DNA from: Escherichia coli
Lineage (GTDB): Bacteria > Pseudomonadota > Gammaproteobacteria > Enterobacterales > Enterobacteriaceae
Reading direction: 5' to 3' (one strand)
Length of the DNA: 64,000 bases
Assembly: GCF_045037415.1 (NCBI RefSeq)
Contig: NZ_CP173438.1
Each line of letters begins with the position of its first letter. Position 1 is the stretch's first letter. The notes beneath the pieces were generated by a model. That model worked only from the letters and a program-made list of their open reading frames with translations. It had not been told where the DNA came from and searched no databases. The position numbers and the translations under genes are program-made. Shown piece by piece: positions 13,274 through 59,597 of this stretch.

Positions 13274-14536
13274 CTATGGGATAAACTTATTTTTACCAAT
13301 TGTATAAGGCGGTGCATAAGATTCTCGGCATGCTTCCAGATAATCCGACCACCACTGCATCATCGCTTTGCGGGCTTCCAGGTGCTCTGCCTTATGAATA
13401 TAAGCCATGCGCACGGTATTGCGCTCCTGATGACTCATCTGGCGTTCTACTGCGTCCTTTGCCCATAAACCCGATTCCATCAGCGCACTGCATGCCATTG
13501 CCCGGAAGCCGTGACCGCAGATATCCTTTTTCGTGTCGTAACCCATCACCCGCAGTGCCTTATTGACCGTGTTTTCACACATTGGCTTATACGGGTTATG
13601 GTCGCCGGGGAAGATCAGTTCATTATTACCGGTGATATCCTTAATCTGTTTCAGAATGGCGATGGACTGTTCTGAGAGGGGGACGATATGCGGCATTCGC
13701 ATTTTTGCCCCGCGGCCGGAATAACGCACGCCAATAATGGGTTCTCGCGTCGCGGGTATCGTCCAGACTCGGTTTGTGAAATCAATCTCTGACCAGCGGG
13801 CGAAACGCAGTTCACTGGAGCGAATGAACACATGCAGCATCAGCAGAACGGCATGCCGGGTCAGTTCACGGCCCTGATGATATGCCCCAATACGTTCAAG
13901 CAGTTCAGGCAGCCGCTCCAGCGGCAGGGCAGGATAGTGCCGTCTGACAGGAGGTGTGGTCACGCCGCCAAGGTTTGCTGCAGGGTTCGTATCGATTAAC
14001 TCCTGATGGACCGCATGGCGCATTATGTTACTCAGGTGCTGCCGTGTGCGGGACGCAACCTCCAGCAGACCTTTTTCCTCGATCCCTTTCAGCAGGTCAA
14101 TGAAATGACGGGGTTTAAGTTCTGATACAGGTAGGTTCCCGATGACCGGAAAGATGTGATTGTTCAGGCTGGCAAGCAGACGGTCGGCGGTGTTCTGCGA
14201 CCATTTCCTGTTACTTTTATGCCACGCCAGCGCCACGTTTTTAAAAACTTTCTCCGGTGTTCGTGAGCCACGTACAGCAGCCCGCTGCTGTACCGGGTTG
14301 ATATTCAGCGCCAGCATTTTACGGATACCTTCACGTTGCTGTCGCGCATCAGACAGGGAGATGGCTGGATAGGTACCCAGCGCAATGCGGGATTCTTTAC
14401 CGCTAATACGGTATTTGAGATACCAGTGGCGGGAGCCACCCGGCTTGACCCGCAGATACAGACCGTGAGAATCGGAGACTTTAAAGGGTTTATCAGAAGG
14501 CTTGAGGGTGCGGATTTTTGCGCTGGTAAGGGACAT
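13274..14536 (-). CDS. intB: P4-like tyrosine integrase of the HPI
   Basis: 420-aa ORF adjacent to tRNA-Asn; tyrosine recombinase C-terminal catalytic region; HPI synteny. Confidence 0.85.
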   Translation of the reverse strand: MSLTSAKIRTLKPSDKPFKVSDSHGLYLRVKPGGSRHWYLKYRISGKESRIALGTYPAISLSDARQQREGIRKMLALNINPVQQRAAVRGSRTPEKVFKNVALAWHKSNRKWSQNTADRLLASLNNHIFPVIGNLPVSELKPRHFIDLLKGIEEKGLLEVASRTRQHLSNIMRHAVHQELIDTNPAANLGGVTTPPVRRHYPALPLERLPELLERIGAYHQGRELTRHAVLLMLHVFIRSSELRFARWSEIDFTNRVWTIPATREPIIGVRYSGRGAKMRMPHIVPLSEQSIAILKQIKDITGNNELIFPGDHNPYKPMCENTVNKALRVMGYDTKKDICGHGFRAMACSALMESGLWAKDAVERQMSHQERNTVRMAYIHKAEHLEARKAMMQWWSDYLEACRESYAPPYTIGKNKFIP

Positions 14537-14697: not shown

Positions 14698-14773
14698 TGG
14701 CTCCTCTGACTGGACTCGAACCAGTGACATACGGATTAACAGTCCGCCGTTCTACCGACTGAACTACAGAGGA
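14698..14773 (-). tRNA. asnT: tRNA-Asn (GTT anticodon)
   Basis: 76-nt exact reverse complement of the E. coli tRNA-Asn sequence as recalled, ending CCA; assignment to the asnT copy is inferred from adjacent mtfA. Confidence 0.9.
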
Positions 14774-14873: not shown

Positions 14874-15671
14874 TTAATGAACATTCGTCGCCGAAAACGA
14901 GTCTGTATCATTAGCGTGATGCAGTCTCTGCAAAGGATCTTGTTGATAAAATTGACAGAAACGTTGCCACAATGAAGGGAAACGAGGAGCAAAAAGTTCT
15001 GGGGCGCTAAAGAAATATTCAGAAAGTACGGCAAAACATTCAGCAGGATCACTGGCAGCATAAGCATCAATGCTCGCCGCATTCTCACCAACTAATTCGA
15101 TTTCTTCCTGAATGTTGTTCATTGCAGCATGAAGATCGTGTTCCCAGCCAGCAACCTCACGCAACGAAATAAAGGGAACTCCGCTGGCGCGATCGCCGTT
15201 ACGGGTGTCCAGCTTATGAGCGACTTCATGAATAATCAGGTTAAAACCAGAAGCATCAAAAGAATCTTGTATATCCAACCAGTTCAAAACGATAGGCCCT
15301 TGCTGCCAGCTCTGACCTGACTGAACAATACGTTGGTTATGCACCAGACCGATATCGTCTTCCCATTCATCATCGACCACAAATGGCGCAGGATAAATTA
15401 AGATTTCATGAAAACCATCCAGCCATTCCAGTCCTAACTCCAGAACGGGCAGGCAAAATAGAAGTGCTATCCGGCAGCTTCTTAATGAATTCAGCTCAAA
15501 GCCCTGTAAAGGAACAAGCCGTTTTTGCTGTAAAAAACGTTCGGCAAGAGCGACCAATTTGCTTTGTTCCTGTTCTGTCAGACACGTTAAAAGGGGGATC
15601 GATAGTGCTTCCTGCCAGGGAAGGGCAGTTTGATGTGCTGATTCTTGTACTTTCCAGGGCCACTTAATCAT
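14874..15671 (-). CDS. mtfA: Mlc titration factor A (zinc-dependent peptidase family)
   Basis: Start chosen at MIKWPWK (265 aa); HEVAH zinc-binding motif present; the track ORF to 15710 is a 13-codon upstream extension. Confidence 0.85.
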
Positions 15672-15764: not shown

Positions 15765-15855
15765 GGAGAGATGCCGGAGCGGCTGAACGGACCGGTTCTC
15801 GAAAACCGGAGTGGGGGCAACTCCACCGGGGGTTCAAATCCCCCTCTCTCCGCCA
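15765..15855 (+). tRNA. serU: tRNA-Ser (CGA anticodon region), serU-like, 3' part rebuilt from prophage attachment site
   Basis: 91 nt, GGAGAGA acceptor stem pairing with TCTCTCC, long variable arm, ends CCA; differs from canonical serU as recalled by one extra T in the anticodon loop and a compensatory G/C pair in the variable arm. Confidence 0.75.
15793..15855 (+). repeat. attL core: 63-bp direct repeat (tRNA-Ser 3' segment, phage-type variable arm)
   Basis: Identical to 55886-55948 except two positions (GTGGGGG/CTCCACC here versus GTAGGGG/CTCTACC at attR); identity ends exactly at CCA. Confidence 0.7.
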
Positions 15856-52781: not shown

Positions 52782-55157
52782 ATGCATCGTATAGACACGA
52801 AAACCGCGCAGAAGGATAAGTTCGGCGCGGGTAAGAACGGTTTTACCCGTGGTAACCCCCAGACCGGCACGCCTGCCACCGATCTGGATGATGACTACTT
52901 TGACATGTTGCAGGAAGAACTTTGCAGCGTGGTGGAGGCCTCCGGTGCCAGTCTGGAGAAGGCGCGGCACGACCAGCTGCTTACCGCGCTTCGTGCGCTG
53001 CTGTTAAGCCGCAAAAATCCGTTTGGCGATATCAAATCGGATGGCACGGTAGAACGCGCTCTTGAAAATCTGGGGTTACAGGATGTAAAAGCTGGTTCAT
53101 TGAACAATCTGTACACTAACCATTCCCGTAGTGTCTTAATGGAATTGCCGTTATTATTCCCAGACTACGATACGGTGCTGGCTGCTCAGTCTGGTGCGGA
53201 ATATATGTATCCACAGGGATTTGTGGTGACAGGAGAAAAAATCTATCTGAGTTATACCGTTGAGCCAAAGCAGACACGGAACGTTATAGTTCAGTACACA
53301 ACATCCGGCGAATATGAGGGATATTATTATGTCGATAATGGAGGTCGTGGCGTTGTCAGCGAAGGCCTTGTGGTGACAACGGATTACGGTGGATTACGTT
53401 TGTTCATGTCAGGAGAAAATGGATTACTGAAACAGTTTTCGCTTGATGGGGCAATTTCTGGTTCAGTATTGCCGTTAATTGATGAACATGATGTCGGTGT
53501 TTACAACCAGTTCAGCTATCGTAAAAACCGCTGGGTGGTTGAACAGTCAGCGCCGGAAGTGGGAGGCCTGATCACCCGCACAGTATTTGCGGTGTATGAT
53601 TTTCAGTTTCGTCGGACAGGGACATTCACATTACCGTTGCATGATTCCGGATATATCACGGAAAGCACAGACAGCTATGCAAGACGCTTCACAAAACGTC
53701 AGGGAATTGCTGTGGGAGACGATTATATTGCCTGTTCTTATGGTGGCTATTTTAATACCGGGGCATCAGCCGGATTTAACCAGTTTCAGGGGGTTAAGGT
53801 CTTTTCTCCGGATGGAGTAAAGCAGCAGGAATCCATTCTTCATCCCCAAAAAATGATAGATGTGCTTACCAGGCAGGGTTTTACACCTTCGCGCATTGAG
53901 AACGAAGGAATTTGTATTTCTGACGACGGCGGCAGTATATATTCGCTTTATATCTTTCTGGAGCGTGGGTTACCACAGGCTTATCAGAAAGGAATTGTTC
54001 TGATGAAAGAGTTCAGTACTGGCAGAGATGCTATTGATTTTCGTCAGGCAGCCTGGTTGTACACGGGGTTTGATGTGTCTCATGCCAGTATTGGAACATT
54101 TCCCCGTAGTGCCCAGGGGTTGGTAAACCCGGTGTTGGGGACGGTATTCACATCCCTGTCTGAAATTCTGGCATATATGCGTTCTGTGAGTCAGAAATGG
54201 TTTTGTCTGCATACAACCACGACACCGATTAAAGATCTGAGTGGAAATGACATTCCTGCTGACAATTATGTGTTCATCAAGAATGCTAATAACCAGACAT
54301 TCTATATAACGCAGGAGTCAGCTGAAGGTGGAATAAAATATAAAGCTGTCACTACAGACAGCGGAGAATATGGTTTTCAGCGACAAAGAGAGGCAATCTG
54401 GTCCAATGTTATCACCATCGCACAAAAGAGCGATGGTGAGGATCAGTTTAATCGTATTATCGCTGCCTCGAAAAGTGGTTCAGGTAAAAATCAGGATAAA
54501 ATACTGGTAGTTGACCAACAGGCATCAGAGGGGAATAACACGCTGGTAATTGGCGGTGGTTCATCTGTGTTCAGGTCAGCGACAGTGATTGATTTTGCAA
54601 CGAATCAGGATGCAAATGCCACAGGAGGAGAAAAGAGATGGCGCATAGATTCATCAGGAAATCTCCGCCCTTATACAGATAATACGTATTCGATCGGTTA
54701 TGCCTCATGGCGACCCGCACAGGTTTATTCAGCTACGGGAAGTATCAGTACATCAGACCGGACTCATAAACAGGACGAAACAATTCTGTCGGATGCAGAA
54801 AAAAGGGTTGCCAGAAAGCTGCTCGGGTATATCTGTCGGTTCCGTTTCAGAGATGCAGTGTCCAGCAAAGGGAACGCAGCCAGATGGCATGTAGGAGTGA
54901 TTGCTCAGGACGTACAGAAGGTCTTCTCTGAGGAAGGGCTGGACGCTTTTGATTACGGTATTTTGTGTCGTGATGAATATCCGGCGGAATATGAAGTGGT
55001 TTACGGGACTCGTATGGAGCTTGGTCCTGACGGACTCCTTACAATGGAAGAATACGATACCGGAGAGCGCAAGCTGGTCAGGGAGGCTGGTGAAATAATG
55101 TCTGTAAGGAATGATGAGCTGCATTATTTCATGCTGGCATCGCTGTCTGGCCAGTGA
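52782..55157 (+). CDS. Tail fiber protein with C-terminal intramolecular chaperone (peptidase S74-like) domain
   Basis: 791 aa; conserved N-terminus, AT-rich variable central part, C-terminal S-D-R-T-H-K motif (about 54750-54770) and downstream conserved block typical of self-cleaving chaperone domains. Confidence 0.75.
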
Positions 55158-55773: not shown

Positions 55774-55846
55774 CTTGGAATATTCTTCTTTAATGTTATG
55801 TAATTTATTGATTTTTCGTGTACGATTTTAAGACATTTATTCCAAG
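55774..55846. repeat. Integrase arm-type site copies at right prophage end (CTTGGAATAT at 55774-55783; inverted TATTCCAAG at 55838-55846)
   Basis: Same decamer as the triple repeat next to attL. Confidence 0.4.
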
Positions 55847-55885
55847 AAAAATTTTTAACTCTTTGATTTTTCGACTCTGTATCAT

Positions 55886-55948
55886 CGGTTCTCGAAAACC
55901 GGAGTAGGGGCAACTCTACCGGGGGTTCAAATCCCCCTCTCTCCGCCA
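55886..55948 (+). repeat. attR core: 63-bp direct repeat carrying the host-type tRNA-Ser 3' segment
   Basis: Matches 15793-15855 with two mismatches; variable arm here matches canonical serU as recalled. Confidence 0.7.
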
Positions 55949-56493
55949 CTTTATCAATGACTTATCTCCCGACTTCCCGCCTTGCTTTTCCTAAACAGAA
56001 CAATCGTAGGATATTCTTGAAGGGTTAGATCGTCACTGTTTTCTGTTCGATACTGTGACATTCAGCACTTGATTCGCTATGGGTCTGACAGGAAGGTTTC
56101 GAGCGAAAATCTACAGTTATTCAGTCGTTTTCTTATCGGTCACCATTATTCTTTTAGACATTGATCCTATGAAACTGCCGCAAAGTTGCTGGCGGGAACT
56201 GAAGTTGCGTAGAGAAGGGGTCAATAATTGAGCCAAAAAAGGAACGCGGCCGTCAGATTAAAGCCGCGGGACAAAGTCCATAATTTCCAAGAGTTGTTGA
56301 ATTTCCCAGCTTTTTTGAAAGCCTTTGTATCATACTAACAAGTAAAAAAGGTTTAAACACCAAAATTAACCTATATTTCTGGTTAGCTTTACCATGACAG
56401 ATGACTTGCTCCTGGAGACATTTGCGCTGCCAGTCTGTATGGCTGAGTTGTGTATTTATTGTTCGCCTTTTTCTCAGTTTTTTTCTACAGACA

Positions 56494-56529
56494 TAATAAA
56501 AAAGACACGACTCAAGTATGAGCGTGTCT
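56494..56529 (-). terminator. Putative rho-independent terminator downstream of zinT
   Basis: On minus strand AGACACG...CGTGTCT hairpin followed by UUUUUUAUUAU. Confidence 0.4.
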
Positions 56530-56617
56530 GAGTTTGTCTTACTTATTTGTCTTGGTAAATTATTGTTGTTACTACCAGGCACTGTTCTGTTAAATAACTG
56601 AAGTCAGCGCAAAAAAA

Positions 56618-57268
56618 TCAATGAGACATCATCTCCTCGACCACTTCTTCGCTACTCAACTGATAGGGATAATACGTTGGCCAGTTTTCCATTTCATTCA
56701 ATAAAGATTGCTGGGAATCATTACCCATAAAAATGTGAAAATGAGATGATTTTCGTGGTGCAATTATATGATCGCTAAATTGTATATATTTAGGGGCTTT
56801 GCTTTCAGGATCTTTACATTCGAATAAGTAACGAACGCCTTTCTTGCCTGATTTATAGGTGAGTATTTTGTATCCATCGTAATCATATTTACAGGATGTT
56901 GTTTCATTATTTCTATGGAATTCGACAATGCCGTCCTCAATGCCAATCATTTCGATATCTGTCGCATAACCTTTGCGATAATAATCTTTAATTTCAGCAA
57001 ATGTTTTGGTTTTATCTGCATCCGCTTTCTTCTGAAAGACGGGGTCAAGTTTGCCACTTTGCAGTAAAGGGTAAACGGATTGCCAGACTCCATCCCAGTC
57101 ACTGAGCGTTCGGTTTTGTACATTGGTATCATCAAAAACACCATTAGCAGCTTTTTGTTCGACCTCTGTTAAGGGTTTGCCGTGTGAGTGATGACCATGC
57201 GAAAAGGCAGGAGCGCTAACAATAAAGACACCTAAAGCAACAGCCAGTTTATGAAGACGAATCGCCAA
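56618..57268 (-). CDS. zinT: Zinc/cadmium-binding periplasmic protein ZinT
   Basis: 216 aa; signal peptide then His-rich HGHHSHG motif; near-identical to E. coli ZinT as recalled. Confidence 0.9.
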
Positions 57269-57300
57269 AACAATTTCCTCCAGAGTTAATGTACATGATG

Positions 57301-57322
57301 TGTAATGTTATATTGTAACATA
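57301..57322. promoter_or_regulatory. Zur-box-like palindrome upstream of zinT (TGTAATGTTATATTGTAACATA)
   Basis: Imperfect palindrome resembling Zur consensus 33-54 bp upstream of zinT start. Confidence 0.4.
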
Positions 57323-57477
57323 TGAAAAAATGCAACAACTCATTAGGAAATGAGAGCATGGTATTCTCAGGTGTATTGAACTATCTTATTGAAATAAAAT
57401 AAATTATTCTGGTGATGAAAGGTTGATGACAAACGAAACATAACTTGATGCGATCTGTGTGGGCCGGATAGGGCGCT

Positions 57478-58910
<1,433 letters not shown>

Positions 58911-58961: not shown

Positions 58962-59597
58962 TTATAGAGATAATTTGTTGTGGGCCTGCTTGCGTAACCG
59001 GTTGAAAAGGGAAAGCAACTTCTTATACCGTAAGGCTAAAAGCAGTACAGCCAGCCCAGCGTAGATGAGTGGCTGCGGTGAAATAATCTTCACTGACCAC
59101 AGATAATGTATTGGGGTCAGGATCGCGACAAGATAGACGAAGTTATGCAACTGTTGCCAGTGTTTGCCGAGTTTTCGCTGCATCGACTGGGTTGAAGTGA
59201 ACGCTAAAGCAAGCAAAATAACCCAGCTGATAATTCCTAACGTTAAATAAGGCCGGGTAATTAACTCCTTACCTAATAACGCCAGATTATTCACGCCCAA
59301 CTCCAGCAATGCGTAACTGGTTAAATGCAGTGTCGCCCAGGCAAAGCACCATAAGCCTAACAGGCGGCGAGTGCGTATCAATAACGGCTGTTTTGCGTAG
59401 CGTGCCAGAGGTGTGATTAACAAGGCCGCAAGCAAAAATTTCAGTGCAGTGCGACCGGTAAAATGCTGAATATCTTTCACCGGATCGGCACCTAGTCCAC
59501 CGTGATTGATCGCCCAGACCAGCCAGAGAAACGGCAACAATCCGGCAAGATGCAGGCAAACTTTCAGCCATATCACCTGTTTTGCTGTCAGGCGCAT
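58962..59597 (-). CDS. msrQ: Methionine sulfoxide reductase heme-binding subunit MsrQ
   Basis: 211-aa polytopic membrane protein; directly downstream of msrP. Confidence 0.9.

Follow-up and report, generated by a model that had tools for sequence, protein, structure and literature searches.

What became of yodB at the serU-zinT locus of this Escherichia coli strain, and was the prophage that occupies serU involved? The stretch analyzed here (the window, 64,000 nucleotides) carries an AT-rich segment between the right end of the prophage and zinT. The earlier note, expecting a cytochrome b561-like gene at this place as in K-12, proposed that yodB may have been lost or replaced when the element was acquired.

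An AT-rich spacer between a prophage end and zinT

The features that frame the segment are as follows.

13274-14536, minus strand: integrase of the yersiniabactin island (HPI)
14698-14773, minus strand: asnT
about 14874-15671, minus strand: mtfA
15765-15855, plus strand: serU, forming attL, rebuilt with a phage-supplied 3′ part; 91 nt, with one extra T in the anticodon loop
between attL and attR: prophage of about 40 kb
55887-55949, plus strand: attR, the displaced original 3′ 63 nt of the tRNA-Ser gene serU, matching the 3′ part of K-12 serU
55950-56617: the queried spacer (668 bp), between attR and zinT
56618-57268, minus strand: zinT, the right-hand border of the spacer
57478-58910: IS1397
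58962-59597, minus strand: msrQ

Base 55949 is the final A of the tRNA CCA end, so that the spacer begins at 55950. Its G+C content is 39.5%, against 50.9% for the whole window, and only 4.8% of the 669-bp windows in the 64 kb are equally AT-rich. Together with the missing annotation and the spurious ORFs described below, this bears out the initial description of about 670 bp of AT-rich DNA, devoid of a credible ORF, next to the 3′ end of zinT. On the prophage side of attR, the last large gene (52782-55157) encodes a 791-residue product, which we take to be a tail fibre or tailspike; from that gene to attR, the DNA is AT-rich over about 700 bp and contains short ORFs only.

Comparison with K-12

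Inspection of K-12 MG1655 (NC_000913.3, 2041375-2043557) confirmed the gene order zinT-yodB-serU given in the note. K-12 carries yodB exactly at this place and the window is without it, as had been surmised. Alignment of the window with the reference zinT-serU region returned two matches, at 55890-56395 with the K-12 yodB-serU spacer (96.2% identity) and at 56618-57341, comprising zinT and 73 bp upstream (97.4% identity). Between these matches, 222 bp in the window stand against 995 bp, including yodB, in K-12, and the spacer thus falls into two parts.

55950-56395, no strand: shared part, common to yodB-free and yodB-carrying E. coli, equivalent to K-12 NC_000913.3 2043021-2043467 between yodB and serU
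56396-56617, no strand: haplotype-specific 222 bp, in place of the 995-bp yodB segment of K-12 and collinear with the Escherichia albertii spacer

The two loci therefore have the same flanking genes in the same orientation, with zinT about 97-98% and the 446 bp beside serU 96% identical, and they share the hairpin of the zinT terminator. They differ in that the K-12 locus carries, from the zinT stop codon onward, 995 bp with the cytochrome b561 family gene yodB, and a hairpin that is not followed by a T-run. The zinT genes themselves diverge by about 2%, and the sequences become unalignable exactly from the stop codon. Beyond it, the window and K-12 versions have in common only a 27-nt hairpin about 90 to 100 nt past the zinT stop codon. 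These junctions, like the absence of yodB, are read directly from the alignment. Recombination tracts reaching into zinT were also considered; this idea was rejected, as the mismatches are spread evenly across the gene.

A yodB remnant detectable by translated search would have spoken against loss or replacement of the gene, and none was found. The best tblastn match of K-12 YodB (176 residues, PF01292) over the whole window had an E value of 0.12 and lay elsewhere, and the region 55800-56700 yielded chance fragments only. At the DNA level, blastn with a word size of 7 found no match to the 995-bp K-12 segment (L001, 4027-5021) anywhere in the window.

The prophage did not remove yodB

Replacement is thus real, in the sense that 222 bp stand where K-12 has 995 bp. 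The proposed link to the prophage did not hold, since the junction lies 446 bp from attR. We regard as negligible the chance that acquisition of the serU prophage entailed the deletion or replacement of yodB. The gene is indeed absent and a prophage end is 446 bp away, but the junction at 56395/56396 is separated from attR by conserved chromosomal DNA over that whole distance; because the missing DNA does not abut the attachment site, the arrangement is not that of a prophage-caused deletion.

Genomes with an unoccupied serU already refute the idea. We queried a set of 5426 complete E. coli genomes with a synthetic empty site, in which an intact serU was fused directly to the yodB-free spacer, and this query matched full length in 1479 of them. 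In SK1144 (NZ_AP018784.2), where serU is unoccupied, the 669 bp recur at 100% identity; the same IS1397 is present by zinT as well. HUSEC2011 (O104:H4) and F404, which matched the empty-site query at 98.4% and 97.2%, respectively, likewise combine an empty serU with the absence of yodB. All three resemble the window in having no yodB and nothing annotated between serU and zinT, and SK1144 in addition in carrying IS1397 and the yersiniabactin island, but their serU is unoccupied whereas that of the window holds the prophage of about 40 kb. F404 differs further from the window in that it has no yersiniabactin island.

Conversely, there are lysogens that keep yodB, and the yodB-free change is not confined to lysogens. 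The O157 strain AR-0428 shows, in order, a serU prophage with a similar att repeat, attR, the shared spacer, an intact yodB and zinT. Such an occupied site beside a K-12-type spacer was seen in about 5 of 40 evenly sampled records of the empty-site query, AR-0428 being the confirmed case. The Stx1d prophage of the STEC strain RM8082 is reported to have the layout serU-prophage-yodB (PMC9729726), and yodB forms the end of the SerU-LTIIb phage entry in GenBank. Independence of the yodB-free state from the prophage is thus a matter of direct observation. As for the prophage itself, it integrated by site-specific recombination within serU, which only shifted the original 3′ end of this gene to 55887-55949 and cost the chromosome no DNA.

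Across the survey set, the yodB-free spacer was present at a query coverage of at least 80% in 2281 of the 5426 genomes, and the yodB segment in 3114. As an accessory gene, yodB is missing from about 42% of complete E. coli genomes. The spacer query as a whole had a median of one match per genome. With the 669-bp query, the best 30 full-length records listed were all 100% identical; they represent 29 genomes, two records belonging to one strain. The spacer is an ordinary, common allele of the intergenic region, already sequenced and left without annotation. We consider it very likely that 55950-56617 is the native, noncoding chromosomal serU-zinT spacer in the yodB-free form of about 42% of complete E. 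coli genomes, and that the lack of yodB is unrelated to the prophage.

Side observations on the serU alleles and IS1397

The serU gene at attL is unusual. It measures 91 nt, an additional T expanding the anticodon loop to 8 nt (TCTCGAAA versus CTCGAAA), and ARAGORN cannot name the tRNA; SK1144, HUSEC2011, K-12 and E. albertii have a normal 90-nt serU. An exact match to the 91-nt allele was found in just 10 of 5425 records, all of them “Esc” strains of one project, among which the window is not found. Roughly 1100 records match it at 98.9%, a value that fits a normal loop combined with the phage-type variable arm. The TT is found in attR too, a feature not predicted by a simple single crossover. 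The 91-nt gene could be a real tRNA gene, possibly defective or frameshifting, the product of mismatched-crossover repair, or a sequencing error.

attL (15793-15855) and attR form a repeat with two mismatches, which occupy mutually pairing positions of the variable arm. With the 3′ half of serU supplied by the phage, an A-T pair of this arm becomes G-C (15813/15824 versus 55907/55918); the change being compensatory, the tRNA arm of the lysogen would be slightly different and still paired.

IS1397, a member of the IS3 family, is 1433 bp long. It is inserted in a palindromic REP unit of the zinT-msrQ interval and has apparently duplicated 3 bp of its target. Its transposase is one fused 452-residue ORF in the window, where RefSeq annotates a programmed frameshift. 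An IS1397-family transposase also lies between zinT and msrQ in SK1144 and is absent there in HUSEC2011 and F404.

Predicted terminators of the minus strand

Two structures in the spacer resemble transcription stops.

56492-56529, minus strand: predicted intrinsic terminator of zinT, starting 89 nt after the stop codon
56233-56268, minus strand (that of zinT and yodB): second terminator-like hairpin, with a G+C-rich 7-bp stem at 56245-56268 followed by UUCCUUUUUU

The first consists of the hairpin AGACACGCUCAUACUUGAGUCGUGUCU at 56503-56529, with an 11-bp stem and one bulge, and the U-tract UUUUUAUUAU at 56492-56502. The 61-nt stretch that contains it folds with −17.9 kcal/mol (z = −3.5). E. 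albertii keeps the hairpin and the T-run with changed stem bases, and F404 keeps the stem, with one change in the bulge and one in the loop. K-12 keeps the hairpin (12 plus 7 identical bases) and lacks the T-run. The structure has the features of an intrinsic terminator, and termination of zinT transcripts is predicted at this point. A simple promoter and terminator scan gave chance-level counts and missed this terminator, probably owing to the bulge.

The fold of the second hairpin is not exceptional (z = −1.6 for its 61-nt stretch). It lies within about 112 bp (56236-56347) that are present in both E. coli haplotypes and absent from E. albertii, and a weak promoter-like site is located there as well, at 56357-56329. 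The second hairpin may stop read-through toward the convergent serU, or end yodB transcripts in K-12-type strains. As we picture it, the spacer would encode nothing; its recognizable elements would be minus-strand transcription stops, the second of which would shield the convergent serU.

Coding potential

None of the 30 full-length matches listed carries a RefSeq annotation in the spacer, nor do SK1144, HUSEC2011 and F404. The longest ORF was nevertheless examined as a gene candidate.

56253-56582, minus strand: ORF of 109 residues with a GTG start, judged spurious

A hidden gene, whether this ORF, a 50-residue ORF at 56079-56231 or a small RNA, is a very improbable reading of the spacer. The 109-residue ORF is longer than the longest ORF in 98.8% of shuffled sequences (1.2% reach that length) and is intact in HUSEC2011 and F404. 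However, it has no match in Pfam, nor have the 50- and 35-residue ORFs of the spacer, and no Shine-Dalgarno sequence precedes it by reading of the sequence. It runs across the zinT terminator and is broken by the K-12 replacement as well as by indels in E. albertii. Comparison with F404 gave 9 nonsynonymous and 4 synonymous differences, even over the codon positions, against 4 and 10 in zinT. The ORF was rejected as a gene on the grounds of the missing Pfam match, the terminator within it, its disruption in K-12 and E. albertii, and these neutral-like substitutions. A 35-residue ORF in the conserved 145 bp by serU was likewise rejected, its start codon being lost in E. albertii.

The small RNA would be a minus-strand transcript that starts from the promoter-like site (56357-56329) and ends with the hairpin (56245-56268), and the presence of a promoter-like hexamer pair upstream of a terminator-like hairpin speaks for it. 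Promoter-like sites are at chance level, though, with 6 found and 4.2 ± 1.8 expected. The candidate stretch is missing in E. albertii, and its fold is unremarkable (z = −0.8). A search of Rfam 15 at E ≤ 1 returned only subthreshold tRNA-like fragments, lying on or starting in the tRNA fragment (55894-56029).

The yodB-free arrangement is probably the older one

Other species were surveyed by an outgroup scan with one genome per species containing ZinT, which returned 80 loci. YodB was encoded within 5 kb of zinT in none of the 77 non-E. coli loci fetched. The two genes were found side by side only in two contigs labelled as Bacillota and Bacteroides metagenome-assembled genomes, whose ZinT is 99% identical to that of the window; these contigs were taken to be E. 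coli DNA.

E. albertii NBRC 107761 lacks yodB, its zinT being separated from serU by a 567-bp spacer. The K-12 junction is spanned by a blastn match (85 bp at 75%, window 56346-56429), and identity counted from the alignment is about 77% over 39 bp that include the window-specific side. E. albertii thus possesses window-specific sequence that K-12 lacks, at 64 to 77% identity. At both K-12 junctions, its spacer is observed to run collinear with that of the window, and it shares the terminator including the T-run; it differs in being only 64 to 84% identical and in lacking the approximately 112 bp that hold the second hairpin. Nine further contigs encoding the same ZinT protein as E. albertii share its gene neighborhood. 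The 145 bp of spacer adjacent to serU are also kept in both E. albertii and Escherichia sp. MOD1-EC7003, according to outgroup blastn and alignment.

As E. albertii is yodB-free at this locus, this state is probably the older one and the K-12 type a later replacement of about 1 kb, a polarity that we favor with reasonable confidence and that has E. albertii as its sole informative outgroup. All Escherichia ZinT proteins fall in one 90% cluster, and only two non-E. coli Escherichia species were retrieved. The other one, MOD1-EC7003, carries a larger deletion that removes both junctions; about 153 bp separate its zinT from what remains of serU, a stretch of 14 nt. In K-12-like strains, the 222 bp of spacer would have given way to a segment of about 1 kb, which starts at the zinT stop codon and comprises yodB with its own upstream region. 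As a hairpin is retained inside otherwise unalignable sequence, the K-12 segment appears to be in part a very diverged homologue and not a simple insertion.

The same retained hairpin, homologous to that of the zinT terminator, could be cited for the opposite polarity, namely, that yodB was present in the ancestor of E. coli and that the yodB-free spacer arose by an old, prophage-unrelated deletion or replacement and then spread by recombination. The likeness to E. albertii would then reflect interspecies exchange or an older shared polymorphism. Chromosomal yodB-like genes at other loci in Salmonella and Citrobacter, and the strong tie of the yodB-free form to a mobile island that spreads by recombination (see below), point in the same direction. 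An identity of 64 to 77% with E. albertii nonetheless fits vertical descent and not recent transfer, no other enterobacterium examined has yodB beside zinT, and F404 is yodB-free without the island. We consider an ancestral yodB unlikely.

MOD1-EC7003 and its relatives (L002 and L100-L103) share the order zinT, about 153 bp, 14-nt serU remnant and then an island. This island has genes for a P4-type integrase and for a protein that combines Cap4-nuclease with pentapeptide-repeat domains, and it may be a defence island at serU.

Prophage-borne relatives of YodB

The closest relatives of YodB outside E. coli are 72 to 77% identical to it. In four of the five clusters of relatives checked, the gene belongs to lambdoid prophages, in which it has the holin-lysozyme-Rz genes on one side and the terminase genes on the other and is read from the opposite strand; these prophages are found in contigs of Citrobacter portucalensis, Salmonella and Hafnia and in metagenome contigs. 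The remaining cluster (a Citrobacter species) lies on the chromosome, with a Bor homologue nearby. Salmonella also has a more distant form, 65% identical, at a different chromosomal locus. Among the loci retrieved, L082-L090 and L097-L099 have such b561 genes in lambdoid prophages with two different packaging modules.

In phage lambda, bor lies between the lysis and packaging genes. The non-E. coli prophage relatives of YodB occupy the same position, in opposite orientation, as accessory (“moron”) genes of the bor type. Unlike these, K-12 yodB has no surrounding phage genes, and 446 bp of old chromosomal sequence lie between it and the serU attachment site. At the DNA level, K-12 resembles the prophage copies (71%) from 88 bp upstream of yodB to near its 3′ end, an extent that fits a self-contained yodB cassette.

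When YodB was compared by tblastn with isolated phages, the only matches were the flanking yodB fragment in SerU-LTIIb and distant ones in Acinetobacter, so the prophage link comes from genome and metagenome contigs only. A comparison of about 100 enterobacterial loci for the source of the K-12 yodB flanks matched only E. coli-derived contigs. The location of the nearest relatives points to a possible phage-related origin of K-12 yodB.

Association with the yersiniabactin island

On its left side, the window includes the right end of the yersiniabactin island, whose integrase lies beside asnT, about 1 kb from serU. In SK1144, the sequence from the integrase to asnT is identical to that of the window, and ybtS lies just beyond the integrase. 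We gauged the link between island and yodB with a chimeric query made of the island integrase and the K-12 yodB segment, combined with the count of the yodB segment. At least one part was present in 5241 genomes, and only 394 had both parts joined, about 243 of which appear to carry a different integrase, roughly 75 to 80% identical. By estimates from identity bands and evenly sampled rows rather than per-genome tables, which are also confounded by shared ancestry, the island integrase occurs in about 2000 of 2312 yodB-free genomes (roughly 87%) and in about 150 of 3114 yodB-carrying genomes (roughly 5%). These figures suggest that island integrase and yodB are almost mutually exclusive across the 5426 genomes.

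The yersiniabactin island is described as spreading in E. coli by homologous recombination together with flanking DNA that includes yeeI, i.e., mtfA (PMC2606025). A similar pairing is on record for ST410, in which B5/H24RxC is fyuA positive and yodB negative and B4/H24RxC is yodB positive and fyuA negative, the island having likely been introduced by recombination according to the authors (PMC10786849). There, gain of the island goes with absence of yodB. That study differs from the present analysis in that yodB serves as a PCR marker only, and the spacer and its history are not described. The yodB-free spacer also exists without the island, as F404 shows.

We infer that the yodB-free spacer has spread together with the neighboring yersiniabactin island. 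We give an even chance to the full scenario in which yodB is recent and possibly phage derived, the yodB-free spacer is ancestral and travels with the island, and gain of the island erases yodB in recipients.

Implications

If this scenario is true, hitchhiking of the spacer with the island would explain the near mutual exclusion of integrase and yodB. The presence or absence of yodB is a handy marker for recombinational import of the asnT-serU-zinT region with the island, and it has already been used in this way in ST410. The locus also calls for caution in a more general sense, in that the lack of a K-12 gene beside a mobile element cannot be taken as evidence of its removal by that element. 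Finally, YodB is a cytochrome b561 paralogue that is dispensable in major extraintestinal pathogenic lineages and whose nearest relatives are prophage borne, both of which are relevant to studies of its function.
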